Position numbers and translations under genes: made by a program. The notes under the pieces are model-generated. The model worked only from the letters and a program-made list of their open reading frames with translations, was not told where the DNA came from and ran no database searches. From the NCBI GenBank assembly GCA_963675785.1, contig OY776562.1, forward strand, positions 1,472,001 to 1,536,000: 64,000 nucleotides of DNA. The letters run 5' to 3'. The stretch is from Anaerolineae bacterium. GTDB taxonomy: Bacteria > Chloroflexota > Anaerolineae > UBA1429. Shown in pieces: positions 49,104-64,000 of this stretch (position 1 is its first letter; each line of letters starts with the position of its first letter).

Positions 49104-50450
49104 TTACCCGCGTTCAGCCAGCGGCACATACTCGCTGCGCTCAACCACGCTCTTGTAGGCCGGACGCATAATCTTTCCGCCGACGATGACCTCTTCCAAC
49201 CGATGGGCGCACCAGCCGGCCACGCGTGAAACAGCAAACAGCGGCGCGTACAGGTCAGAAGGGATGCCCAGAATATCATAGACAAACCCACTGAAAAAGT
49301 CCACGTTGGCCGAGAGCACCTGATCTGTGTGCTTGACCTCGCGGAAAACCTCGGGCGCCAGGCGCTCTACCAGCAGATAGAGGTCCATCTCGGCGCTGCG
49401 GCCCTTTTCCTCGGCAAGCTTGACGCCAATCTCGCTAAGAAGCACGGCACGAGGATCGCTGGCGGTGTACACCGCATGGCCCACGCCATAGATGAGGCCG
49501 CTCTTGTCAAAAGCCTGCCGGTTGAGCAGCGCCCTTAGATAATCACGCACGGCGTTCTCGTCGGTCCAATCCCCCACACTGACCTTGAGGTCGTCCATCA
49601 TCCGGGCCACTTCCAGCGTCGCGCCGCCATGCTTGGGCCCCTTGAGCGAGCCAATCGCCGCAGTGATGGCCGAATAGGTATCGGTGCCGGTGGTCGAGAC
49701 CACGTGCGTGGTAAAGGTCGAGTTGTTGCCGCCGCCGTGTTCGGCGTGAATCATCATCATCACGTCGAGGGTGTGCGCCTCGAGGTCGGTGTATTCGCTG
49801 TTATCGCGCACCAGGTGCAGCAAGTTCTCAGAATGCGACAGGCGCGGATCAATCTTGTGGATGACCAGGCTCTGGTTGAGGTAATAGTGGCTCTTCACCT
49901 GGTAGCCATAGGCGGCCATCACCGGCATCCGCGCGATGAGGGCGATGCTCTGCCGCACAATATTCTCGACGCTGTTATCGTCAGGGTTGTCATCATAGGC
50001 ATAGAGCGAGAGCACGCTGTGCGCTAACTTGTTCATCAGGTCGGGGCTGGGCGTGCGCATAATGTTGTCTTCCAGCAGGCTGCCGGGCAGCTTGTAATAG
50101 GAGGCCAACAGTTTCTTGAATTCCTCCAACTGCGTAGCGGTAGGCAATTGCCCAAACAGCAGCAAAAAGGCGACCTCTTCATAACCCATGCGCTTTTCGG
50201 CGAGTGCGGCGGTGACCAGGTCTTCCAGGCTATAGCCGCGATAAAAGAGCTGGCCGGGTACTGGCACACGTTCACGCTCGTCAACAAGGTATCCGTGCAC
50301 ATCGCCGACCTCGGTAAGCCCCACGAGCACGCCGGTGCCGTTTTCGTTACGCAGACCTCGCTTGACCTGATAAAGCGTATAAAGCTCGGGCGCTATCTGG
50401 TTGTTCTGCCGCGCCAATGTGGATAGCTCTTGCATGAAATCAGTCGTCAT
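49104..50450 (-). CDS. gltA: Citrate (or 2-methylcitrate) synthase, copy 2
   Basis: Same length (448 aa) and mostly identical to 41256..42602. Confidence 0.9.
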   Translation of the reverse strand: MTTDFMQELSTLARQNNQIAPELYTLYQVKRGLRNENGTGVLVGLTEVGDVHGYLVDERERVPVPGQLFYRGYSLEDLVTAALAEKRMGYEEVAFLLLFGQLPTATQLEEFKKLLASYYKLPGSLLEDNIMRTPSPDLMNKLAHSVLSLYAYDDNPDDNSVENIVRQSIALIARMPVMAAYGYQVKSHYYLNQSLVIHKIDPRLSHSENLLHLVRDNSEYTDLEAHTLDVMMMIHAEHGGGNNSTFTTHVVSTTGTDTYSAITAAIGSLKGPKHGGATLEVARMMDDLKVSVGDWTDENAVRDYLRALLNRQAFDKSGLIYGVGHAVYTASDPRAVLLSEIGVKLAEEKGRSAEMDLYLLVERLAPEVFREVKHTDQVLSANVDFFSGFVYDILGIPSDLYAPLFAVSRVAGWCAHRLEEVIVGGKIMRPAYKSVVERSEYVPLAERG

Positions 50451-52036: not shown

Positions 52037-52909
52037 TCAGGAGGCGGATTGATTAGTTCTATTACGGCGCAAAGCCATATAGGATATGTAAATCTTACGA
52101 AGCAACATAAGCAGAAATAAGTAAAAAAAGATAAATATAAAAAATGAAATAAAAAATAAAAATAGCAAATTGACGGAAAAACCAGATATAATAAATCCCT
52201 TTATAGAGCTAGGAATATCCGGATTCTTCACCCACTCTGCAGACAAAGTTTTTGCCTGAGTCAGTATGCTAGACCCATCAATACAATAGAGAAGAGAGCT
52301 ATGTATAGCCGCTAGCCCAATTCCACCAATCAGGATGTTGTTTGCTGCTTGATTATCTTCCTGATGTATCTGTCGCTTGGCCATCAAAGCTTCATTAGAT
52401 CCCTTATTACCGAAACCTATTTGAGGCACAGCCACTTCTCCGTCACAGATACACTTGAGCTGAATTTGTTTGCCAGGTAACATCGTATTGAAATTGACTA
52501 CCACTTTATCTTGATCTACTTCAATGACGATATCCTTATGCTCCGCTTCTGCACCATCAAGATATGCATCAAGGAATCTAGTTTCGGTCGAGAATTCTAA
52601 AACTAGGGGGCAAAGCCCTTGATAGTCATTTATGGGAAACTCGCGATGATTTTTCAGTTGACACGAGAAAACAAAAGGATCCGACACCCTTTCACCATCG
52701 AAAAACATTTCTAAAGCCCCATCTTCTTCAAAAGATGGTTTTGTTTCAGCAAGGACGCCCAATTCGAATGGAGCATCAAAACTATACAGAAGCACGGCAT
52801 CCCGACGGCTTCTATAATTTTTGATCTTTATTTTAATTAAATAGATAAAATATAGAAAAATAACTAGCAACAATAGTAACAGAGATACATCATCAAATGA
52901 AAGAGTCAT
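52037..52909 (-). CDS. AT-rich membrane protein (TM, Ig-like beta domain, TMs)
   Basis: Same architecture as 52951..53718 and weak similarity to it. Confidence 0.65.
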   Translation of the reverse strand: MTLSFDDVSLLLLLLVIFLYFIYLIKIKIKNYRSRRDAVLLYSFDAPFELGVLAETKPSFEEDGALEMFFDGERVSDPFVFSCQLKNHREFPINDYQGLCPLVLEFSTETRFLDAYLDGAEAEHKDIVIEVDQDKVVVNFNTMLPGKQIQLKCICDGEVAVPQIGFGNKGSNEALMAKRQIHQEDNQAANNILIGGIGLAAIHSSLLYCIDGSSILTQAKTLSAEWVKNPDIPSSIKGFIISGFSVNLLFLFFISFFIFIFFYLFLLMLLRKIYISYMALRRNRTNQSAS

Positions 52910-52950
52910 AAAAATACCTTTACTATTTTCAAAGATTATCTAGTGGATGA

Positions 52951-53718
52951 TCAATCAATATCGTTTTTTTTATTGATAGAGGAAAGAACAAAACCTATCA
53001 AGTTACCAAAATCTGAAATCAAGCCAAATCCCAAGAAAAGAAATAAAAATAAATAAATTATAAAATAAGGAATAAGATCTCTACCAAAAACGCATATAGA
53101 AAATATTCCGACCAAACCTCTACAACCAATGTATATGAAAAATGTAAGGATCAAAGAAGCAAAAAAACTCAAGATGGGGTCTATAGTTATAATTGGTCTA
53201 CGAACTCGATACCCCCATTGCATTTTCACAAGCTTTCGAATTTTTCCCATGTGAAATTTGATTTGGGGAATAGTTATAGGTCCCTCACATACAAGAAGAA
53301 GATAAAACCGATTTCCTGGATTCAACAAAGGAAAATCTACAGTAACGTCATTAAGATCAGAGTTTACAGTGACTTTCATACATTCTGGTATCTTTTTTAC
53401 CAGACTCACGTCGAGAAGTCGAACACCTAGAGGGAATTCAAGAGTAACGGGTATAGATATTTGTTCTTTTGTAATATCTGTATTACCGATGTTTTCTAGT
53501 CTGCATTCGAAAACAAAAACGTTCGATACTTCTTGTCCTTTATATTTGACAACAAGAGACGATGCTGCCCTCAAAGATTGATCAATCCGATGCTGTGAGA
53601 TGAGTTCAACTTGCTCACTGAAAGCATATGCAAGAGAATCCCTGGGGTGTTTAAATACTTTCAATGCTTCTGGCAGGAGAGCAGCCAATATTGTTATAAT
53701 AAGATCATGTATATTCAA
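52951..53718 (-). CDS. AT-rich membrane protein (beta domain plus two C-terminal TMs)
   Basis: LENIGNTDI..PVTLEF..FPLLNPG; AAGGTG RBS. Confidence 0.68.
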   Translation of the reverse strand: MNIHDLIITILAALLPEALKVFKHPRDSLAYAFSEQVELISQHRIDQSLRAASSLVVKYKGQEVSNVFVFECRLENIGNTDITKEQISIPVTLEFPLGVRLLDVSLVKKIPECMKVTVNSDLNDVTVDFPLLNPGNRFYLLLVCEGPITIPQIKFHMGKIRKLVKMQWGYRVRRPIITIDPILSFFASLILTFFIYIGCRGLVGIFSICVFGRDLIPYFIIYLFLFLFLGFGLISDFGNLIGFVLSSINKKNDID

Positions 53719-53826: not shown

Positions 53827-54057
53827 TAGCGCATCGGGTTGAACCCCGATGCCACCCAACGAACCCTGGCCCTGCGGACAGGCTCAACCCCACACTCCCT
53901 AGCCTCCGATTTATCGGATGGTTCGCAGACCTAGCACCCAGCCTTGCAAAGCAAGACAGTTCAGCCTGGTGCGTTAATCCCCTGCTTTACCTCCGAAGGA
54001 GGTGCCTATCCTAGGCCGGCGACGCAAGGCGTCGCAGACGCCAAGTCCCGGCCAAAT
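53827..54057 (+). repeat. REP/BIME-like mosaic hairpin cluster F
   Basis: GCATCGGGTTGAACCCCGATGC; CTCCCTAGCCTCCGA.. module shared with 48890; GCTTTACCTCCGAAGGAGG..CCTATCCTAGGCCGG..CGCAGACGCCAAGTCCCGGCCAA shared with 56159. Confidence 0.8.
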
Positions 54058-54089
54058 GGCATAATGAGACCCATCGCGACAAGAAAAGC

Positions 54090-54710
54090 TCAATTCACCA
54101 ATTCTTTCACCTTAGGATTAGCCAGTTCTTCAAAGATTTGATCTGCTCCCCATGCTTGTGCAGCTGCAAAAGCGCATCTACGTTCTTGGTCATATGTCAA
54201 TTTGCCTGCCGCCTTATAAACCAAATCATGGTTGGCCTCAGCCCAAGCATGCTGAAAAAGCGTAACCACTTGAAGCTCAAAAAACTCGGGCTCCTCTACT
54301 CTGAATCGCTTCTTGACACGAGGGGGAATAAGGAACACAAAATGTTTACCCTCATACCCAAATTGCCAAGGACACTCTATGATATGCTCGTTGTCTTCAA
54401 TTGGGTTATAGTAATCACACAATGCATTTCGTATTGTATCAACATCAGACTTGTAAAAGACTATGACCCTAGCACCTATTTGATCCTGTATCTGAATTAA
54501 TGGATGGGAATACTTCGGAATACCGGGAGCTTTTTGTTTTTGCGCCTTTTCAAGAAATCTATCAACGCTCTTAGCGCGTGCACAGATACGGTCGATATGA
54601 GAAAAACCATTTAGCTGCCGCTTTAAATCAGCCTCAAGACGCTCAGCCACCGGAACCAACACATCCTCAAAACGCCGCGAATAGGTTTCTTCCAGATTTT
54701 CTGAGCTCAT
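54090..54710 (-). CDS. Small alarmone synthetase (stand-alone RelA/SpoT domain)
   Basis: RAKSVDRFLEK, IQDQIGARVI, GYEGKH, ELQVVTLFQHAWAEANHDLVYK. Confidence 0.88.
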   Translation of the reverse strand: MSSENLEETYSRRFEDVLVPVAERLEADLKRQLNGFSHIDRICARAKSVDRFLEKAQKQKAPGIPKYSHPLIQIQDQIGARVIVFYKSDVDTIRNALCDYYNPIEDNEHIIECPWQFGYEGKHFVFLIPPRVKKRFRVEEPEFFELQVVTLFQHAWAEANHDLVYKAAGKLTYDQERRCAFAAAQAWGADQIFEELANPKVKELVN

Positions 54711-55711
54711 AGTCGCTTAACCAGCCTTTGCCGAACTATATGCCCTGTCGTCGTATATTGGACAAGCCCTTCCTGAAGGTTGACTATCTCCTTTTTAAAG
54801 GCTTCATTGAAATCCTGGGATGTGGCACTCAAGTATGCGCCATTATCGAGTATGACCCGAACATATGGAAGATATTTTTCAAGCGTTTCCTCGTCAACCT
54901 CAAAATACTCGTCAGCTATATCGGAGCTCTCCAGACAACTAATAACGAGATCAGAGGTTTCTTCCTCAATACCATACTGCTCAAGTACTCCACGAATAGA
55001 GATTGTCTTCCCTTTAAGACTGGGCAAGAGCAAAGCCATACTGACTAATTGATCCTGGATGTCAGGATCTTTAGCAAGTGCTGTCGCTTCCCTAAGAGCG
55101 TCCGTAAGGATAATCGTACCATCCACAGAAGTCGTTTGTCTCACTGAAGAGAGAAATTCTTGGGACCAGTAATCTGCTATACCAGACTGCTGACGATCCT
55201 GGGCTTTTCCAGTCCAAAAGCTCCCCAAGATCGCCAAACCCTGATATACAGCTGATTTGTAGTGCTTTGAATTCTTCATGAAAACCCGTTCAACAAACTG
55301 AACGCTAAGGCTATCTTGATCAATATCAGCCAAAACACCTTGATCTGCCGGAAAACGCGAAAACATGACCTTATGTTTTTCCCCATCGCAACCATGAACG
55401 AGAAAGAGCAAACCTAATTTAGAGCGACCCGTCGTGTAGGAACAAAGACGTCTAGCTATAGGCTCTGAAGTTAAGCCGCTAGGACTAGAAACAAAATCCA
55501 GAATTAACCCACGAGCCTCGTTAGATTGAGTGCCGTCCTCTGATTTAAACATAATCGAGATATTACAGTCGTGTTCTGCTTTGTCGTAGATATCTTTGAG
55601 CATCTCAAAGAGCTGTCCCGACAACGGGATTTCAGTCCCTCGCAGTGGCTCAAGATCCTTCTCCCCTTTTCCCGGCGGAACCAGATAACTGAAAATGTGA
55701 TCGATGTCCAT
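54707..55711 (-). CDS. Hypothetical protein, possibly related to the nucleoid-associated NdpA/YejK fold, coupled to the alarmone synthetase
   Basis: AGGAG RBS; 4-nt overlap with the SAS gene. IARRL..GLLFLV and YKSAVY..QD....DYW..EFL are reminiscent of that fold (weak evidence). Confidence 0.7.
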   Translation of the reverse strand: MDIDHIFSYLVPPGKGEKDLEPLRGTEIPLSGQLFEMLKDIYDKAEHDCNISIMFKSEDGTQSNEARGLILDFVSSPSGLTSEPIARRLCSYTTGRSKLGLLFLVHGCDGEKHKVMFSRFPADQGVLADIDQDSLSVQFVERVFMKNSKHYKSAVYQGLAILGSFWTGKAQDRQQSGIADYWSQEFLSSVRQTTSVDGTIILTDALREATALAKDPDIQDQLVSMALLLPSLKGKTISIRGVLEQYGIEEETSDLVISCLESSDIADEYFEVDEETLEKYLPYVRVILDNGAYLSATSQDFNEAFKKEIVNLQEGLVQYTTTGHIVRQRLVKRL

Positions 55712-56019
55712 TTCAAGTCACTCCTGCGCTAGAAAAGTGTATTCATCACACAATATCAACGCCGAGAAAAGCTATACATAACATAGAAGGAGTATAACAA
55801 TAAACCAGAGATTTTCAATGGGAAGCCTCCAATAACGCGCATCTATACTGGCAATTTCGAACCATACCAAGCTAAACCAGAAATTACACAGGCCAGGCAT
55901 TCCCCTCCCCTCCCAACTCCACCTCTTTCCACCTTCACCCTCTACCAACAGCACCTCCTCTCCGCACACACAAGAACGCCAAACACCCAGGTTCAAAGAC
56001 CTGCAATCAACAAAAGCAT

Positions 56020-56302
56020 CTGCCCTCCGGGCAGATTTTCCTAAGCCGAGGGCTTTAGCCCTCGGGCAGTAAAAACGGAGAGGGTTTGAACCCTCTCCGC
56101 GCGCATTTCTGTCTGTCAGCGTGGGGTTTCAACCCCACGCGCGACGTCCCCACGCCCCGCTTTACCTCCGAAGGAGGCCTATCCTAGGCCGGAGACCCCA
56201 GGCGGTCGCAGACGCCAAGTCCCGGCCAATTGCCCCCACTTTAAGCGCAGCCCTGACAAAGCCAAAGGCTTTGTCAGAGAGAATCGGTCTACCGATTCTC
56301 CC
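56020..56302 (+). repeat. REP/BIME-like mosaic hairpin cluster G
   Basis: CTGCCC..GGGCAGATTTT, CCGAGGGCTTTAGCCCTCGG, GGAGAGGGTTTGAACCCTCTCC, GCGTGGGGTTTCAACCCCACGC, CTGACAAAGCC..GGCTTTGTCAG, GAGAATCGG-n4-CCGATTCTC. Confidence 0.85.
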
Positions 56303-56355
56303 ACAAAAACCCCTCCCCTCCACGTGGTACCTCAACAGAAAGGAGGAACCCCACC

Positions 56356-57501
56356 TTGACCCTCTGGCAACAACGCCTCGCCGACCGCCTCTTTGGCAAA
56401 ATCATCCAAGAACGCATCACCCAGGCCGTCAAGGCCGTCGACGACGCCCAATGGCGCGCCGTCAACACCCCGCCCCTCGGCACCGATCGCCCCTGGCACG
56501 AGCACATCCAAGAGCTCGAACGCATCGAGCGCCTCTGCCACACCAACCCCCTCGCCAGCCGCATCATCTCCCTCACCACCGATTTCGTCGTCGGTCGCGG
56601 CGCCACCCTGCAGGCGCCCCAGCACCTTCACGATTTTTGGCATCATCCCCAAAACGACCTCGACCGCCGCCTCTACCGCTGGTGCGACGAACTCGCCCGC
56701 AGCGGAGAGCTCTTTCTCGTGCTCAGCCGCGTCCCCGGCAGCGGACTCTCCTACATCCGCGAGATCCCCGCCCGCTGCATCGACCGCATCGAAACCAACC
56801 CCCACGATCTCGAAGACGAGCAGCGCTATCACCAGCTCACCGCAAATGTCGATGGCCGCTGGTGGCCGGCTGCTGCCCGTCCCGGTCGCCCCCTCTGCCC
56901 CGATGACCAGGTCATGCTCCACTACGCCGTCAATCGTCCCCTCGGGGCCCTGCGCGGCCGCTCTGATCTGGCCCAACTCACCGACTGGCTAGAGCACTAC
57001 ACCATGTGGCTAGAGGATCGCGTGCGCATCAACCGCTACAAATCCGCCTACCTCTGGCACGTCACCATCAAAAACCCCACCCGCGGCGCCATCCAGGCCA
57101 AACAATCCCAATACGCCCGACCGCCCCAGCCCGGCAGCATCATCATCAGCGATGACAGCGAGATCTGGGAAGCCCTCAGCCCCCACATCGACGCCCCCTC
57201 CGTCGAGGACGACGGCCGCGCCCTGCGCCTCATGATCGCCGCTGGAGCCGGTGTGCCCCTTCACTACCTGGCCGAAACCGAATCCGCCACCCGCGCCACC
57301 GCCCGCGAACAGGCCGCCCCCACCTTTCGCCATTTCGCCCACCGTCAGGCCCTTTTCAGCCGCATCATCGAGGACCTGCTCCGTGTCGCCAGTCGCCGCG
57401 CCGGTCATCCTGAAACCGCCAGTGACCCCGACATCCACGTATCCTTCGAGCCCGTCGAGACTACCGAGAATGCGGACACCTCAGGAGACGAGCATGACTA
57501 A
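56356..57501 (+). CDS. Phage portal-like protein
   Basis: AAGGAGG RBS before TTG; NPLASRII..DFVVGRG, ELARSGELF, RGRSDL, IAAGAGVP.H.L are typical portal segments. Confidence 0.78.
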   Translation: MTLWQQRLADRLFGKIIQERITQAVKAVDDAQWRAVNTPPLGTDRPWHEHIQELERIERLCHTNPLASRIISLTTDFVVGRGATLQAPQHLHDFWHHPQNDLDRRLYRWCDELARSGELFLVLSRVPGSGLSYIREIPARCIDRIETNPHDLEDEQRYHQLTANVDGRWWPAAARPGRPLCPDDQVMLHYAVNRPLGALRGRSDLAQLTDWLEHYTMWLEDRVRINRYKSAYLWHVTIKNPTRGAIQAKQSQYARPPQPGSIIISDDSEIWEALSPHIDAPSVEDDGRALRLMIAAGAGVPLHYLAETESATRATAREQAAPTFRHFAHRQALFSRIIEDLLRVASRRAGHPETASDPDIHVSFEPVETTENADTSGDEHD

Positions 57502-59371
57502 CGATCCGCTCTCCGACCCTCATCGCGTCACCCTCAGCGGCGAGCTACGCCCCCGTTCGCCCGGCTGTTACACCGCTCTGCTCATCCGCGCCTGCACCGC
57601 CAACGGCCTCACCTTTGGCCCCCAGGTGCTGCGCCTGGCCGCGCCCCTCTTTGAGGGCGTCCCCGCCTTTGTAGATCACGCCCCGGGCGGCCGCTCCGTC
57701 CGCGATATGGCCGGCCTCTTCGACGCCGTCTACTACGATGACGACGCCCAGGCCGTCTATGGTCGCCTCAAGCTCTTCCCTCAGGCTGCTTGGCTGGGCG
57801 AGATGGCCTCCGAGGTCGCCAATCCCGCCATCTTGGGGCTTTCCGCCGTGCTCTGGGTTCAGCGCGATCGCCAAAATCCGGCTCATGTGGCCCGTATCGA
57901 ATCCGTCGAATCCTGCGATATCGTCGTGCGCCCCGCCGCTGGTGGAGCCATCCTAGCCCCACAGCCCACACCGCCCGCACCCGCCGCCTCAGCCCTTGCC
58001 CAAGGAGAAGTTATGTCAACAGAAAACCCCGCCGAATCCGTCCCGCAGCAACCCGAAACCGACGCCCTGCGTCAACTCGCTCGTGAGAACGCTCGCCTCA
58101 AGATCGAGGCCAGCGGCCTGCCCGAACCCCTGCGCGTCCGCCTGCAGCTGCGCTATCTGCCGCCCCAGTCGGTCCAGGGCACGCCCGAACCCGCCCAACC
58201 CCTCGATGCCGCCATCGCCGAGGCCCGCGAGGCCCTGGCTGCCGCCACCGAATCCCAAACCGTCCGCCACTTGGGGCCTCTCTCCACCATGCGCACCCCG
58301 CTGGATCGCATCGAGGCCGCCTTTGGTCAGCTCATGGGCCTCCCCCAAACCACTTCCGAGGCCGATGTGGCCCATCTCAGCGGCATCCGCGAGCTCTACG
58401 ATACCCTCACTGGCGATTGGGAGCGCCGCGGCCTCTTTGTGCCCCAGCGCGTCACCCTGGCCAACGCCACCACCACAACCATGGCCGAAGTCACCCGCAA
58501 CGTCCTCAACAAGGCCCTGCTCCAGGCCTACAACCGCCGCCCCCACTGGTGGCAGCCCCTCGCCCACGAGGAAGATTTCGCCACCCTCCAGCCCGTGCGC
58601 TGGATCGGCCTGGGCGGCTTTAGCGATCTCTCTCCCGTCGCCGAAGGTGCCGCCTACACCGAGCAAACCTGGGACGACACCGCCGAGACCGCCAGCTTTG
58701 TCAAAACCGGCAACTACATCGGCATCACCCTGGAAATGATCGACCGCGACGACGTGGCCGCAGTGCGCGCCATCCCCCAAAAGCTCGGTCTCGCCGCCTG
58801 GCGAACCCTCAGCAGCGCCGTCTCTGCCCTCTTTACCGCCAACGAGGGCCTCGGCCCCGTCCTTAGCGATTCCCACAACCTCTTCGATGCCGCCCATCAC
58901 GGCAACCTGGCCAGCGCTGCCCTCTCCGCCGATAACTGGCAGGCCACCACCGAGGCCATCTTCAAGCAGAGCGAGTACGGTTCGGCCAAGCGCCTCGGTG
59001 TGCGTCCGCGCTACTGCCTCATCCCCATCGAACTCGAGCGCACCGCTCTAGAAATCTTTACCTCCGACGTGGTACCTACAGAGAGCGCCTTTTATCGCAA
59101 CGTGCTCCGCCGCGGCGCAGATAGCGTCATCGTCGTGCCCGAATGGACCGATGCCGTCAGTTGGGCTGCTGCCGCCGATCCCGCCGATCTCGAGAGCGTC
59201 TGCATCGGCTATCGCTACGGTCGCGCCCCCGAGCTTTTTGTCGCCGATTCGCCCCTCATGGGCAGCATGTTCACCAACGACGAGATGCGTATCAAAGTGC
59301 GCTTTGTCTACGCCCTGGGCGTAGCAGACTATCGCGCCCTCTTCAAGCACAACGTCAGCAGCGGATCCTAA
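57494..59371 (+). CDS. Prohead protease-like domain fused to a Mu gpT-like (HK97-fold) major capsid protein
   Basis: AGGAG RBS, overlaps the portal stop. N-terminal FVDH..GLS..SCDIV..PAAGG (prohead protease-like). C-terminal V.EGAAY, G..IGITLEMIDRDD, PRYCLIP.ELE, KVRFVYALGVADYR (gpT-like). Confidence 0.82.
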   Translation: MTNDPLSDPHRVTLSGELRPRSPGCYTALLIRACTANGLTFGPQVLRLAAPLFEGVPAFVDHAPGGRSVRDMAGLFDAVYYDDDAQAVYGRLKLFPQAAWLGEMASEVANPAILGLSAVLWVQRDRQNPAHVARIESVESCDIVVRPAAGGAILAPQPTPPAPAASALAQGEVMSTENPAESVPQQPETDALRQLARENARLKIEASGLPEPLRVRLQLRYLPPQSVQGTPEPAQPLDAAIAEAREALAAATESQTVRHLGPLSTMRTPLDRIEAAFGQLMGLPQTTSEADVAHLSGIRELYDTLTGDWERRGLFVPQRVTLANATTTTMAEVTRNVLNKALLQAYNRRPHWWQPLAHEEDFATLQPVRWIGLGGFSDLSPVAEGAAYTEQTWDDTAETASFVKTGNYIGITLEMIDRDDVAAVRAIPQKLGLAAWRTLSSAVSALFTANEGLGPVLSDSHNLFDAAHHGNLASAALSADNWQATTEAIFKQSEYGSAKRLGVRPRYCLIPIELERTALEIFTSDVVPTESAFYRNVLRRGADSVIVVPEWTDAVSWAAAADPADLESVCIGYRYGRAPELFVADSPLMGSMFTNDEMRIKVRFVYALGVADYRALFKHNVSSGS

Positions 59372-59383
59372 GGAGGTAGGTTC

Positions 59384-59557
59384 ATGGAACTGTTTACCGG
59401 CACCTGGTGGCAAGAGCTCCTCGTCCAGTTGGTCATCGCCATCCTCACCACCGTGGTGGGCATGCTCACCTACGAGGCCCGCGTCGCCGCCCCGCGAGAT
59501 CAGCAGCGCCAGGAGGAGATCGACTCCCTCACCCGCCGCACCGATCACACCCTCTAG
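59384..59557 (+). CDS. 57-aa single-TM protein (holin-like or membrane anchor)
   Basis: AAGGAGGT RBS overlapping the capsid stop; MELFTGTWWQELLVQLVIAILTTVVGMLTYEARVAAPRDQQRQEEIDSLTRRTDHTL*. Confidence 0.7.
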   Translation: MELFTGTWWQELLVQLVIAILTTVVGMLTYEARVAAPRDQQRQEEIDSLTRRTDHTL

Positions 59558-59727
59558 CCCTCCCCCTCTCCTCAGCGTCCGGCTGCCCCCACAGCCGGAC
59601 GCTCCCCTTATCGCCAACATCCTCGCCGCCCAACAAAACACGGACCCCGAACGCCCATCAGCGTCCAAGGTCCGTGTAATGTTATTCTAGTTGTAGGCGG
59701 CGAGTTCCCTAATGCCGCCCCCTCTCC

Positions 59728-60975
59728 TTAGGGAAAGTTCTCCGGGTCGACTCTATCGGTGCCCACCGTGCCGCCAGCCACGCCGTACAGCGTAACCTCC
59801 CAGGCGGTGTACTGGGTCGAAGTCGTCTCAAAGGGAATCGTGGTGTCCATCTTTTGGTAGCTGGCGTTCCGCGTAAAGCGATACGTCTCCGCGCTGAAAT
59901 CCTCGCCCTTGCTGTAAAAGAGCAAATAAGTCCCGTCGACGATGCCGGTCATGTTGAATGACTCTCCGGCCCGAATATAGGCCGTCTTCACCGCCGCCTC
60001 ATCCATATTGGTGAGAATCACCAGCGCATCCGAGTCGGTGCCATTCTTGATGAGCAGTTCACCGGCGCCGCCAGGTGCATTGTCCACCAGCATCCCTGTA
60101 CCCGGCCTAAAGGGCGGCAGGGGTGTATTCGTCGGTTCCGGCGTAGAGGTCGGCGTCGGGCTGGGCCCCGGCGTCACGGTTGGCGTTGACGTCGGTGTAA
60201 GCGTCGGCGTCGGCGCGATCGCGGTCAGGTGCGCCACCTCGGCAGCCATGTCCGCTGCATCCTGAAAGACAACCTCGCTGTACGTAACAGGCTCGCCGTT
60301 GCCGCGCGTGGCCAGCCCGATATAGCCCTCGCGATTGATATCTGGCCCGAGCGGCGCCCTGGCTACCAGTTGCCGATCGATGAAAAGCCAGGCCTCGTCA
60401 TCCGTCACCCGAATGGCCACCAAACAGCTGTCGGCCACCATGAGCAGCTCCTCGTTCTGCACCAGCCACGCAACCTCGGAATCATCGATCGAATTGGCAC
60501 AGATGGCCTGCCCGTACCCGCCTATATCAAAGATCAGGCACCCGGGCGACCACCCCTCTCCGTCGCCGTAGGCCACAATGATCGCCTCGCCGCTGCCCAG
60601 CCAGTCGCTCTCCACGGTCGCTTCAAGGGTAAATGGCCCTTCGACGATCTGCTCCGACCAGGCGAAAGCCTCATCCTCGCCCTCGGTAGCGTAGGTGCTG
60701 TCCTCGTTGGTCCACAGGCTGCCACCCGTATTAAAGGACAGCGAACCAGATTGGGCCACTTCCGGCGCCACCGTAGGTTCCGTTGTCGCAGTGGCAACCC
60801 TCTTCTCCGCCGTAGGCTGCGTGGTAGCTGTGACGGCTCTGTCCACCACTGCCGTTTCGCCACCAGCATCACAGCCGGTCAGCATACCAAGCAGCAGGCC
60901 CAGCATCATGAGCTGGACGAGCGCGCGCCTTGTTAGCACGCCCCGCCAATGGCAAGAGAGTTTTGGCATGGTCAT
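59728..60975 (-). CDS. Two-domain lipoprotein with Pro/Thr linker
   Basis: Lipobox LTGC, lectin-like beta domain, PTPTLTPTSTPT linker, C-terminal beta domain. Confidence 0.75.
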   Translation of the reverse strand: MTMPKLSCHWRGVLTRRALVQLMMLGLLLGMLTGCDAGGETAVVDRAVTATTQPTAEKRVATATTEPTVAPEVAQSGSLSFNTGGSLWTNEDSTYATEGEDEAFAWSEQIVEGPFTLEATVESDWLGSGEAIIVAYGDGEGWSPGCLIFDIGGYGQAICANSIDDSEVAWLVQNEELLMVADSCLVAIRVTDDEAWLFIDRQLVARAPLGPDINREGYIGLATRGNGEPVTYSEVVFQDAADMAAEVAHLTAIAPTPTLTPTSTPTVTPGPSPTPTSTPEPTNTPLPPFRPGTGMLVDNAPGGAGELLIKNGTDSDALVILTNMDEAAVKTAYIRAGESFNMTGIVDGTYLLFYSKGEDFSAETYRFTRNASYQKMDTTIPFETTSTQYTAWEVTLYGVAGGTVGTDRVDPENFP

Positions 60976-61205
60976 GGCCTACCTTATCCTGTCTGTGCGG
61001 TTGTTCCCTGTTCGTAGCCGGTCATTCCCTTGGCCCGATAGCACGAGCCTCCGAGATACTAGCGCTTGAGCCGAGCCGAGTCAATACCGAGCGCCATGCC
61101 CTGCACCAGAAAACCTTAACTTTAACGTGGTTTTTATAGAGCACTTCTTATCGCAACCTGCTCCGTCGAGGAAGTGAGTGCGGCGGTGACTTGCGGGGCT
61201 TCAGA

Positions 61206-61529
61206 TCAGGCTCGGCGATAGGTCGCGCCTCTAGTGAATAAGGGATCATCAGGTGTCGGAGTGGGTTCCCCGTCAACAATGACGTATCCCTGAGCCTCCA
61301 TCACCTGCCTGATTAAATGCCCCGTGAATAGCCTGACCCGATGCTGCTTGACAGGCTCGCCACAGATAGCCAGCAGCAACTGTCCAACGGCCCCAGCAGC
61401 GGGCTGTCTGGCGTCTGAAGCATCTGTCATCCTTTTGACGATATCAGGCCAAGTGAGGAATGCCCAGAGTCGATCTCCCCATTCGGGTGCTACATCAGTA
61501 AAAGAAGCAATGTCATAATCGTAAGTCAT
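61206..61529 (-). CDS. Hypothetical protein
   Basis: AAGGAG RBS; 107-aa ORF. Confidence 0.65.
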   Translation of the reverse strand: MTYDYDIASFTDVAPEWGDRLWAFLTWPDIVKRMTDASDARQPAAGAVGQLLLAICGEPVKQHRVRLFTGHLIRQVMEAQGYVIVDGEPTPTPDDPLFTRGATYRRA

Positions 61530-61613: not shown

Positions 61614-64000
61614 CTAATCAGATGATTCGGATGTAGCAGGTGGGGGAAAAAATGCGTCGCCACAAATGCAGTAGAGCCGATTTTTGTCAGAGTTAAACTT
61701 CAAAAGTTTTCCGCACGAACAACAGCAGAAAAGCTTGGTAAATTCGATAAAATTTTCCCAAACGTACTTCACATCACCAATGGCTGGCCACGCGTAAGGA
61801 TTGGCTTGATAGTGGCTGTAGTAATTTATGATCGAAACAGCCGACAGCCGTTTATATGCGTTTGAAGTAAATACAATATCCTTGAATCTAGGATTCAGAG
61901 TCTTTACCCGTGTAAGAAATGGTTCCCAATAGTCAAAGAGAGTACGCTGATAGTCGTGAGGCCCTCTTTTATGAGGGGTATATGCATCGTACTTCGCACA
62001 CATTTCGTCAAACCAATCTTCCATATACTGTCGAACTGCATTTCCAGCGATCTGTGAGTCCCCATCGTTTATAAGCCTAGAGATCTCATCACAGGTAACA
62101 ATCTCGGACTCCCTCCTTGGGCCCAGATCGAACTCATAACCTGTAATCCTGTCGAAACGCCAGTTTTCGCTCTGGAGTCTTTGTTTCAAATGTGTGAAGA
62201 ATCTTTCATCGTGAGTAGTGAGAAAAATCTGGAATCCCTGCATATACTCGGCTAACAGATCTACGATTCGGGCTCTGTTATCGGCATCGTATGAAGACAC
62301 GATGTCATCCAGAACGAGAAATGGAAAAGTCTTGTTGAACCGGCGCACAGCACTAAGGAAGAGAGCCAAACCAAGCGTGTTAATCTGGGATTCACTTAGG
62401 TATCCGGCTGGTGGAACAACACGATCATCGGAATGGAAGCTCACTCGAAAAGTCAGATCCCTTTTTGCCGCATCTATCCCAATATGAACATGAGGAACTG
62501 CTTCATCCGGATATATTTGCTTATATATGTATTCCACCTCACTCCTGAGTAGCGCCACAGCATCTTCCGTAAGTGCTTTCGCCTGCGTACGTATTTCGTC
62601 GGCGACTTGTCCAAACTGTTGTTCCACTTCCCTGACTGCCGCTTCACGTCTTTGTAGTGTTTCAATCTTTTGAATCGCTTCATTCAGAGCCTGTAGGTTG
62701 GCGATTGAGGTACCAATCGGCAAAGTAACTTGAGAAGCCACCTCTTCAGGCATGCTATCCAACGCTTGCGGTATCTGTGTATGCACAAACTGATCACAGG
62801 AAGAGTAGAAGTTAGTGAATTGCGAAGTCAGTTCCTGCAAATTTTTGTCGCTCTTCATCATCTGTTCACAAGTAGTATGAAGCTGTGAAGCTTGACTGAC
62901 AACCTGAGGGAGCGAAAGAGTTTCAGCCAATTGATTGACCTGTAGTAGCCCACTGTCAAGAGCTGTAAGTGTATCTTGCAAGTTTTTCCGTTCCGTCAAG
63001 CATCGTTTACTGACAGCCTCGAATTCAGCCAATTCGTCCAAGCTAACGGAAAGAGCAACGCAAGCATCATCAAGTGAGCCTACTTTAGTTTTCTCCCAAG
63101 GAGTCTGACACACAGGACAAACCTTAGGCTTTTCAGAATTCAACAAGTCTTGGGCAGCTTGCCAGACTTCCCGAAACACGCTTTGACTCGCTTCGCTTTG
63201 GGCCTGGTCTCTATCCTGTTCAGCCTTTAGACTTTGAGAAAATGTGGATTCAAGCTTGCGAATAATACTAGGGAGTGCGCCAGCTTTTTCCCCTAGTTGT
63301 CTCTTTGTTTGAACAGCCCTAGCACCCTTAGATTGCTGAACGATCTCTTCTCGGCGCTTATTTAGCAACTCGATCAGTTCAGGAATTGTCTTCGCCACAT
63401 CCTGAGGCGTAAATTTCTCTAGATGCTTTTCAGCTTCTGCCGTGCACCAGTTGAGAATTCCCTGCAAGTCAAAGGTCGAGACAGCTTCCAAAGTATGAGA
63501 ACGGATGCTATCTAGATGCTCTGAAATCTCCCGATCTAATCCTGCGTTTTTTAGCGTGTTTTGCGTTGTTTTCAGATGTGTAAGTATGTTATCAATATCC
63601 TCTATACCTATCCATTGAGAAAACTCGCTGAACTTCTCGCTGGGTGACATATCCACAACAAAATGGCGAAGGTCATGTTGACGTAAGATATTGTAGGCAG
63701 GAGCTTGCGCTAGGACTGTATCAATCTCTCCCGGTCTAGGATCAACCCTACCCGTTTGAATAGGACGTTTTGCGAATAGTCTGTCTCGGGTTTCCGTATT
63801 AATGAATTCGATAGATACCTCTGGAGCTATGCCCTTTTCTTCTGCCAACACGTGAGGGATTGCATGTTTTCCACCAAGTTCACTGTCCGCCCCTCCCTTT
63901 CCAAGATGCTTGACCTCGCCATCAAGCGAGAACATGTACTCAATGGCATCAGCATATCCACTTTTTCCGCATCCATTTGGACCAAAAATCGCAATTGAAA
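61614..64000 (-). CDS. SMC/Rad50-like ABC ATPase with Zn-hook and C-terminal HEPN-like/Zn-ribbon region (5' end outside the window)
   Basis: The frame extends to the window edge: SIAIFGPNGCGKSG (Walker A). CPVC in the coiled coil, YLSESQ signature, LVLDD Walker B, LTTHD; C-terminal NYYSH and CCSC..CICG. Confidence 0.85.
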   Translation of the reverse strand, partial: SIAIFGPNGCGKSGYADAIEYMFSLDGEVKHLGKGGADSELGGKHAIPHVLAEEKGIAPEVSIEFINTETRDRLFAKRPIQTGRVDPRPGEIDTVLAQAPAYNILRQHDLRHFVVDMSPSEKFSEFSQWIGIEDIDNILTHLKTTQNTLKNAGLDREISEHLDSIRSHTLEAVSTFDLQGILNWCTAEAEKHLEKFTPQDVAKTIPELIELLNKRREEIVQQSKGARAVQTKRQLGEKAGALPSIIRKLESTFSQSLKAEQDRDQAQSEASQSVFREVWQAAQDLLNSEKPKVCPVCQTPWEKTKVGSLDDACVALSVSLDELAEFEAVSKRCLTERKNLQDTLTALDSGLLQVNQLAETLSLPQVVSQASQLHTTCEQMMKSDKNLQELTSQFTNFYSSCDQFVHTQIPQALDSMPEEVASQVTLPIGTSIANLQALNEAIQKIETLQRREAAVREVEQQFGQVADEIRTQAKALTEDAVALLRSEVEYIYKQIYPDEAVPHVHIGIDAAKRDLTFRVSFHSDDRVVPPAGYLSESQINTLGLALFLSAVRRFNKTFPFLVLDDIVSSYDADNRARIVDLLAEYMQGFQIFLTTHDERFFTHLKQRLQSENWRFDRITGYEFDLGPRRESEIVTCDEISRLINDGDSQIAGNAVRQYMEDWFDEMCAKYDAYTPHKRGPHDYQRTLFDYWEPFLTRVKTLNPRFKDIVFTSNAYKRLSAVSIINYYSHYQANPYAWPAIGDVKYVWENFIEFTKLFCCCSCGKLLKFNSDKNRLYCICGDAFFPPPATSESSD

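Follow-up and report, generated by a model that had tools for sequence, protein, structure and literature searches.

To our knowledge, gene transfer agents (GTAs) are experimentally known from a handful of lineages. The GTA of Rhodobacter capsulatus and other Alphaproteobacteria (RcGTA) involves extra loci and a sigma-like activator, GafA. Capsid-forming satellites such as the capsid-forming phage-inducible chromosomal islands (cf-PICIs) are contiguous islands that carry an integrase, regulators and replication genes and borrow their tails, and we know of no encapsulins that come with a portal, adaptor, terminase or tail parts. Here we describe a phage-head operon, encoding a portal protein, an HK97-type capsid fusion and a 57-residue protein, in the genome of an Anaerolineae bacterium (Chloroflexota), together with genes elsewhere in that genome that belong with it. 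The operon lies in a stretch of 64,000 nucleotides (contig OY776562.1 of assembly GCA_963675785.1, positions 1,472,001 to 1,536,000, forward strand), which as a whole is called the window. The source genome is denoted G000, relatives' genomes are numbered in the same series, and fetched loci carry an L number.

The original prediction took the three head genes for a stand-alone operon without terminase, tail or integrase. Its stand-alone look is due to an insertion and to the window edge: genes for a head-to-tail adaptor, a spike-like protein and a tail hub lie 6.4 kb downstream, just past the window, and a large terminase gene follows ~46 kb further. The search for orphan terminase and tail genes that had been proposed thus found both elsewhere in G000, and the statement that no other phage genes are nearby holds inside the window and fails beyond its end. 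The functional unit comprises at least nine genes in three places, termed loci A (head), B (tail tip) and C (terminase). The head genes have in our judgement an even chance of being one module of a host-maintained, multi-locus, GTA-like particle system. The fuller proposal, that Anaerolineae own an independently domesticated, minimal GTA-like particle, the first in Chloroflexota, whose propeller is of a sugar-binding type and whose dispersed loci are switched by an extracytoplasmic function (ECF)-type sigma factor, is offered more tentatively, as somewhat less likely than not. In the parts of the literature available to us, which on GTAs deals almost wholly with Alphaproteobacteria, no published account of a comparable system from Anaerolineae or Chloroflexota was found.

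The head genes

The three head genes are real, intact and translationally coupled on the forward strand (window positions 56356-59557; coordinates of all features are collected in Table 1). The gene overlap and the strong ribosome-binding sites (AGGAGG or AGGAG) noted at first sight are present, as is the uniform C-rich codon usage, with C at 59-66% of third positions in the portal and capsid genes and a GC skew of -0.23 to -0.29.

The portal protein matches PHROG 10963 ('portal protein') over most of its length (residues 18-364, E = 3.6e-29), stays below the cut-off of the lambda-type Pfam family Phage_portal_2 (23.9 against 32.9 bits) and finds no match among solved structures by sequence search. 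Its homologue, with 53-64% identity in the best tblastn segment, adjoins the capsid gene upstream in 11 of 12 relatives' loci; the twelfth locus is interrupted by a contig end.

The capsid fusion has a single match in G000. Its open reading frame (ORF) was listed as 57251-59371 (706 residues); from relatives' alignments and the sequence itself, rather than from the listed ORF, the actual start is taken to be the ATG at 57494, which sits 8 nt inside the end of the portal gene (ATGACTAA) with AGGAG 6 nt upstream. The C-terminal half matches the Pfam family Phage_capsid_4 (PF25209; E = 8.5e-30, 105.3 bits, cut-off 27; residues 408-699 of the 706-residue frame). The fusion also matches PHROG 4523 ('major head and protease protein', E = 1.1e-44) and NCBIfam scaf_prot_MCP2 (E = 6.6e-47, far under the equivalog cut-off). 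Membership of NCBIfam NF045541, a prohead protease/major capsid fusion, was rejected: the match reaches 160 bits against a cut-off of 525 and covers model positions 226-632 only, leaving the protease part of the model unmatched. The NCBIfam and PHROG families named for a protease/major capsid fusion are matched via the scaffold and capsid parts only. Compared with solved structures, a profile of the fusion gave only E = 0.07 to one capsid chain.

Eleven aligned fusion sequences, with 60% mean column identity and no internal stops, display a conserved N-terminal domain (residues ~25-150), a variable, Pro/Ala-rich, scaffold-like helical linker (~160-300) and the capsid domain (~300-625). The N-terminal ~150 residues match no protease family and no solved structure in Pfam, PHROG, NCBIfam and the structure profile search. 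Their position and two motifs invariant in the alignment, Asp-His and Gly-Leu-Ser, make this domain a candidate prohead protease. Of the identities first proposed for the operon, portal and HK97-type capsid stand, and the protease is left as a candidate.

The 57-residue protein has no match in Pfam, PHROG or NCBIfam, and tblastn finds its gene after the capsid gene at L034 (48%), L045, L048 and L054. A GC-rich inverted repeat behind it is a possible end of the head transcript; the terminator scan of the forward strand does not list it.

Tail-tip and terminase genes at two further loci

Locus B (genome 1537917-1540697) lies 1.9-4.7 kb beyond the window end, and its genes are tightly coupled, every start codon overlapping the preceding stop. 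The first encodes an adaptor that matches the Pfam family SU10_adaptor with 36.4 bits (cut-off 27), residues 4-180 aligning with positions 2-181 of the 194-position model. Two observations concern this gene: an in-frame AT-rich stretch of ~100 bases (L017:2160-2270, genome 1538160-1538270) interrupts coding sequence of 65-70% GC, and a GGAAC-N15-CGTT string upstream is a lead noticed by eye. The second gene encodes a small beta-rich protein, which we take to be a putative spike of gpV/gp5 type; its relatives carry an additional C-terminal domain. The third product was modelled by AlphaFold with a predicted local distance difference test score (pLDDT) of 85.7 and a predicted TM-score of 0.83. 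In Foldseek, the C-terminal half of the model matches VgrG, the hubs of extracellular contractile injection systems, Mu gp44 and T4 gp27 over ~330 aligned columns (E = 1.3e-17 to 1e-9), and the model also matches viral 'tail protein' and 'protein D' models in BFVD, which identifies the protein as a tail hub; its N-terminal propeller is predicted to be sialidase-like from the structure match. The adaptor gene follows the portal-capsid pair on the same strand in all eight relatives' loci compared, and the spike-like and hub genes come after it in seven of them.

Locus C (genome 1586714-1589317) lies on the opposite strand ~46 kb beyond locus B; in G000, head and tail genes are thus separated from the terminase by 46-60 kb. 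The Pfam terminase families PF03354, PF03237, PF04466 and PF05876 have no match in G000, and Terminase_6C has one sub-threshold match at 1587.4-1588.9 kb (19.5, cut-off 22.6). The 490-residue protein of this locus matches PHROG 38 ('terminase large subunit', E = 5.8e-9). With the terminase of Bacillus phage vB_BboS-125 it shares 33% identity across 72% of its own length (E = 5e-36). By sequence, its profile has no match among solved structures. In Foldseek, the best matches of its model (pLDDT 75) are the large terminases of T4 (gp17), HK97, Sf6 and D6E, with P74-26 also matched, and both the ATPase and the nuclease domains are covered, including separate domain entries. The folds, an N-terminal ATPase and a C-terminal RNase H-like nuclease, confirm the protein as a large terminase. 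Its alignment contains more than 150 invariant columns, among them what we read as Walker-type and nuclease motifs.

The operon of locus C has the same composition in 12 of 12 loci: an ORF of 130-190 residues, the terminase, and a protein of 210-270 residues. The first ORF in G000 (147 residues, no family) is a weak lead for a small terminase, the nearest named feature clusters being small-terminase-like with low scores. The last protein in G000 contains a sigma-70 region 4 domain and groups with ECF-type sigma factors by language-model features. Its constant place in the terminase operon suggests this ECF-like sigma factor as a candidate switch of the system. No 8-mer is shared between the upstream region of the portal gene and those of the adaptor and terminase genes in G000. 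The gap between head genes and terminase, together with the DNA beyond it, holds 43 ORFs, and the best 25 of the 59 families that these match are ordinary cellular ones; statements below on the flanks of six relatives refer to the best 25 of 64 families.

Distribution and gene order

The capsid fusion was searched for in 40 relatives, namely 24 other genera of the same family and 16 other families, and in a survey of 401 sampled Anaerolineae genomes. It is present in 19 of the 24 genera, at 52-64% identity, in one of the 16 other families, and in 83 of the 401 genomes; the terminase is found in 71 of the 401. That the unit is intact in relatives, the first check proposed for it, is borne out by these genera. 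Among them, 17 have both genes, two the capsid fusion only, none the terminase only and five neither; across the class, the corresponding numbers are 53, 30, 18 and 300, both relatedness and the incompleteness of metagenome-assembled genomes affecting such co-occurrence counts. In the five contiguous assemblies the terminase is always unlinked from the head and tail genes, at 10 kb (G008), 46 kb (G000), 52 kb (G020), 132 kb (G019) and 141 kb (G014).

The best 80 of 181 genome records matching the capsid fusion are all titled Anaerolineae, Anaerolineales, Anaerolineaceae or Chloroflexota, and include Leptolinea tardivitalis YMTK-2 and Brevefilum. Three architectures track the sequence similarity to the G000 fusion. 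The nearest group (46-65% identity) has the order portal-capsid-adaptor-spike-hub with the terminase elsewhere, a middle group (42-51%) has the adaptor and then the terminase, and an Anaerolineaceae group (33-37%) has terminase-portal-capsid, the canonical phage order. L. tardivitalis (L099) carries this last version plus endolysin-type genes; no integrase is found among the 19 PHROG families matched at its locus. A search for further Leptolinea-cluster genes in G000 was without success, only terminase, portal, capsid and adaptor being common to both and the rest belonging to unrelated paralogous families.

The viral collection IMG/VR holds 212 related contigs, all called viral; the 80 that were fetched are without exception at most 35 kb long and show the same small architectures. 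The closest homologues hence lie in equally small clusters and not in complete prophages, a location that had been named in advance as one that would speak for a recent deletion remnant. Among cultured phages, the best match of the capsid half is Microcystis phage Mae-JY22 (35.7% identity over 52% of the query), and lambdoid and Pseudomonas phages follow with 28-30% identity. None of 109 cultured-phage records covers at least 80% of the fusion, and the N-terminal domain and linker are unmatched in them. Genome G004 holds a second, diverged copy (C264:39024-45196; capsid 42% and terminase 51% identical to G000) in which terminase and capsid gene share a strand and are only ~3 kb apart; this copy may represent a true prophage of ancestral type.

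Selection, inheritance and mobility

The ratio of nonsynonymous to synonymous substitution rates (dN/dS) of the capsid fusion, a further check proposed at the outset, is 0.056-0.27 in all 13 closest pairs. Between-genus values of 0.3-0.75 were discarded, synonymous sites being saturated at a third-position GC content (GC3) of 0.8-0.95. The capsid alignment has more than 150 invariant columns, and loci A and B have retained their overlaps between start and stop codons. Relative to G000, identities are 67-73% for RpoB, 59-67% for the terminase, 55-65% for the portal and 52-65% for the capsid.

In the capsid tree, G000 and G008 are grouped (90/91) and the split of the RpoB clade of eight is recovered (98, starred) with no starred conflict, so that the well-supported RpoB groups are recovered or uncontradicted; the portal and terminase trees are poorly resolved. 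Flanking genes are collinear in two same-genus pairs by blastn and ORF-based tblastn. A tblastx comparison of the flanks proved unusable, giving compositional matches in high-GC DNA. Among the best 25 of 64 families matched by the 79 flank ORFs of six relatives, no phage families were found, the families being cellular or defence-related, in line with the non-phage flanks that had been looked for. The absence of an integrase is upheld at the scale of the whole genome: tyrosine recombinases are matched twice in G000, each time at a distance of more than 330 kb, and serine recombinases not at all. Because its genes lie 10-141 kb apart across genomes and have no accompanying recombinase or replication genes, the set probably cannot move itself as a unit, and would therefore behave like a GTA or another host-owned phage-like particle. 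With structural genes of phage origin that reside in the chromosome and come with neither an integrase nor a replication module, it agrees with the GTA class in this feature.

Two readings of a mobile kind do not fit this arrangement. An intact temperate prophage was rejected, with the terminase 46-60 kb off, cellular genes in between and no recombinase near, and so was a cf-PICI-like satellite, with no integrase, dispersed loci, and a hub and a spike-like gene present.

Several observations, however, weigh against a host-maintained system. The set is patchy, being absent from five of the 24 family genera, and in one genus the capsid, the terminase and both flank genes are missing from two of four species. 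Contigs of three other sequencing runs join the hairpin cluster, 291 nt 5' of the portal gene, to a position 16 nt beyond the stop codon of the hub gene; this joint skips 12.6 kb and may mark an empty site, although it is ambiguous, the matched sides being only 25-39 nt long and the left one a three-copy repeat. (Runs were compared as assembled contigs only, in which stretches without cover are uninformative.) Co-occurrence over the class is imperfect, as the 30 capsid-only and 18 terminase-only genomes show. No lysis gene was identified in G000, the tail parts are limited to adaptor, spike and hub, and the small terminase and the protease domain have no higher standing than weak lead and candidate. 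The related contigs in IMG/VR are called viral.

Base composition points in the same direction. In a genome of 53.6% GC, seven segments 1.75 kb or more in length reach a GC content of 0.63 or higher, and loci A and B, with 0.650 and 0.676, top this list. Among 939 long ORFs, the head and tail genes rank at or above the 99.6th percentile with a GC3 of 0.78-0.86, and all 12 relatives show a GC excess too, regardless of the GC content of each. The codon bias is unlike that of tuf, groEL and rplB (r = 0.08), and with no such correlation an adaptation of codon usage to host expression was dismissed. The GC3 excess could reflect a foreign or mobile origin. Some apparently cellular operons of G000, identified by eye, also reach GC3 0.75-0.82. 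The other GC-rich segments were considered as hidden parts of the system and set aside, looking by eye like cellular operons; one of them contains a 681-residue ORF with no assigned family (genome 1435559-1437604, forward strand, GC3 0.82).

These points bear above all on a mobile element, a helper-dependent phage satellite or degenerate transferable phage that spreads horizontally within the class and keeps its own composition. We regard this as unlikely, though it is the alternative that survives best. The GC3 far above that of the genome in G000 and all 12 relatives, the position in a variable, defence-rich stretch with low-GC neighbours, the varying presence within one genus, the possible empty site, the 212 viral contigs and the compact second copy in G004 would all fit it. 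So would the depth of contigs in run X6, summed at 31-89 over the head and tail genes, compared with 6-9 for the left flank and 11-14 for the inserted block (L144:3805-9510, which is window 55805-61510, and L144:13949-16484, past the window end). This 5-10-fold excess over the flanks therefore means that several near relatives in X6 (at least 85% identity) carry the head and tail genes in other surroundings. Yet no recombinase is found within 330 kb in G000, among the best-matched 25 families of the relatives' flanks or among the Leptolinea PHROG families, the terminase stands apart in five of five contiguous genomes, the capsid and RpoB trees agree in the parts resolved in both, and flanks are collinear within two genera. 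The 185,579 species genomes include no donor above 65% identity, and the empty-site joint is short-sided with a repeat on its left. Long-term vertical inheritance under purifying selection is favoured by tree congruence, collinear flanks and low dN/dS and opposed by the GC3 excess, the within-genus absence and the possible empty site.

Genomic surroundings

Table 1. Features at and around the head genes and in locus B. Positions are those of the window unless a locus is named.
Feature	Position	Strand	Remarks
206-residue RelA_SpoT-domain protein	54090-54710	-	Pfam E = 5.9e-13; PADLOC candidate PDC-S33 E = 2.4e-10
334-residue ORF	54707-55711	-	Second cassette gene; no family
Cluster of short GC-rich hairpin repeats, 5' of portal gene	56010-56312		Families D8, D10, D18, hairpin I3
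Portal gene, 381 residues	56356-57501	+	TTG start, AGGAGG 8 nt upstream
Scaffold/HK97-type capsid fusion gene, 625 residues	57494-59371	+	Pfam, PHROG, NCBIfam, alignment
57-residue protein gene	59384-59557	+	One predicted membrane helix, charged tail; AGGAGG upstream
GC-rich inverted repeat after 57-residue gene	59575-59602	+	Read from sequence; without T-run
415-residue secreted or lipoprotein-like ORF	59728-60975	-	Start of inserted block; signal peptide ending LTGC
107-residue ORF	61206-61529	-	Inserted block; no family
773-residue SMC-like ATPase, LmuB-like	61614-63935	-	PADLOC LmuB E = 5.8e-31; GC3 0.43
SU10-type head-to-tail adaptor, 209 residues	Locus B, first gene		Pfam SU10_adaptor PF24175
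Spike-like beta-rich protein, 72 residues	Locus B, second gene
Tail hub, 647 residues, N-terminal beta-propeller	Locus B, third gene		AlphaFold model and Foldseek

The head genes are separated from the adaptor by 6,359 bases that contain four genes on the opposite strand. The first is the lipoprotein gene already noted downstream of the operon; the LTGC that ends its signal peptide is, we presume, lipobox-like, and the protein matches no family and has no homologue in 15 relatives' loci. The LmuB-like ATPase scores below or near the cut-offs of the Pfam families SMC_N and AAA_21, no LmuA partner was recognised among the neighbouring genes, and the ATPase is not part of the phage-derived set. 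Upstream of its gene are ~700 bases of 41% GC and then the fourth gene, for a tetratricopeptide repeat (TPR) protein. Other genomes carry different DNA, 0.3 to 5 kb long, at the capsid-adaptor junction, the insertion in G000 being the largest seen. Because the same junction is filled differently across genomes, it is a recurrent insertion point, and the cluster as a whole is a repeated landing place for defence genes. The 79 pooled flank and insert ORFs of six relatives include the defence families Abi_2, Eco57I and PemK.

Upstream of the operon, the host repeat cluster first described there consists of hairpins whose units recur in the genome, one 35-mer in three copies (at most three mismatches) and its 20-mer in 18. 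It includes one copy (56155-56232) of a direct repeat of ~80 nt, the other copy of which lies at 53980-54058. The two copies flank a low-GC (45%) cassette of two reverse-strand genes (53980-56232), directly upstream of the capsid operon, whose RelA_SpoT-domain product may be a defence gene of the small-alarmone-synthetase toxin type. Contigs of runs X6 and X9 contain a joint that skips 54029-55995, and given this joint the cassette may be missing in related strains. Further upstream, two paralogous reverse-strand ORFs of 290 and 255 residues (52037-53718), with nothing in Pfam, PADLOC or NCBIfam, occupy a stretch of 33-38% GC rich in A-rich repeats. Within a few kb, the GC content of the window can change from 33% to 68% (for example 52-54 kb compared with 56-59 kb), which gives the window the look of an island mosaic; citrate synthase (49104-50450) is an ordinary gene nearby.

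A predicted DNA-packaging particle

In the host-maintained system that we favour, a signal would turn on the ECF-like sigma factor, which in turn would turn on the loci. On the portal, the fusion protein would assemble into a procapsid and lose its N-terminal part, after which the terminase would fill the head with DNA. The adaptor would close the portal and bear a very short tail made of a hub trimer and a spike, the hub propeller serving as a binding domain.

The conserved, co-occurring terminase with its predicted ATPase and nuclease folds makes DNA packaging likely and a nanocompartment unlikely. Of the forms proposed earlier for a domesticated portal-bearing capsid, a split GTA therefore fits best, whereas an encapsulin nanocompartment was rejected, portal, adaptor and terminase being present and conserved.

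Some other host device, be it a protein compartment with a portal, a particle for killing or delivery, or a module that serves as a decoy for phages of the same type or interferes with them, is in our view improbable. It draws on the defence-type genes beside and inside the cluster (the RelA_SpoT cassette and the LmuB-like ATPase) and in the relatives' flanks and inserts, and on a tail reduced to hub and spike with a sialidase-like propeller. Defence neighbours, however, are common in variable regions and differ between genomes, and the complete large terminase that is kept together with the capsid argues for DNA packaging.

That the genes are an inert relic, old prophage pieces surviving without function in many lineages, is the weakest reading and very hard to credit: although the set is incomplete for a phage, has insertions of 0.3-6.4 kb between the capsid and adaptor genes across genomes, was lost in five of 24 genera, and shows a split portal match in one relative and two TGA codons in a partial capsid-fusion match in another, full-length frames have been retained in genera with an RpoB identity of just 67-73%, dN/dS is low in every closest pair, invariant columns and overlapping codons are kept, and unlinked loci co-occur.

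If the GTA-like reading is true, this is another independent domestication of a virus, with a core that recurs across a class of mostly uncultured, ecologically dominant bacteria, and the first such system in Chloroflexota, abundant filamentous bacteria of sludge, sediments and the subsurface. Bacteria of anaerobic digesters, sediments and mats would then have a further route for exchanging genes, and a very small head-plus-tail-tip design would be at hand for expression and imaging. Virus-prediction pipelines count such clusters as viral, as in IMG/VR, and prophage counts for Chloroflexota may be inflated as a result.

Comparison with known systems

With encapsulins, the set shares an HK97-fold shell protein encoded in a bacterial chromosome, and it differs from them in its portal, adaptor, terminase and tail parts. 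The likeness to Microcystis phage Mae-JY22 and to the lambdoid and Pseudomonas phages with protease-scaffold-capsid genes is confined to the capsid half. That to the podophage SU10 (Kuravirus) is confined to the adaptor, over nearly the whole family length; the hub here has the gp27/gpD fold, which is typical of long-tailed phages and contractile systems, whereas the podovirus has a nozzle. Like cf-PICIs and other capsid-encoding satellites, the system is a small set with portal, protease/capsid, adaptor and terminase and without a full tail, but no recombinase is near, the genes are dispersed, and a hub and a spike-like gene of its own are present.

GTAs of the RcGTA type come closest. They too have head and tail genes of phage origin kept in the host chromosome, with parts in several loci and neither an integrase nor a replication module, and share purifying selection, a patchy, family-wide spread and raised GC; the GTA definition and the GC pattern follow PMC11841831 and PMC7360931. 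In RcGTA regions GC1 and GC2 are raised and GC3 is not (PMC7360931), whereas here GC3 is raised, which makes this parallel a partial one. The present system occurs in Chloroflexota, and its terminase lies outside the head cluster, in an operon of its own with a sigma factor. The candidate protease, scaffold and capsid are fused in one gene, and in place of the siphovirus-type tail of RcGTA the tail is made up of adaptor, spike and hub.

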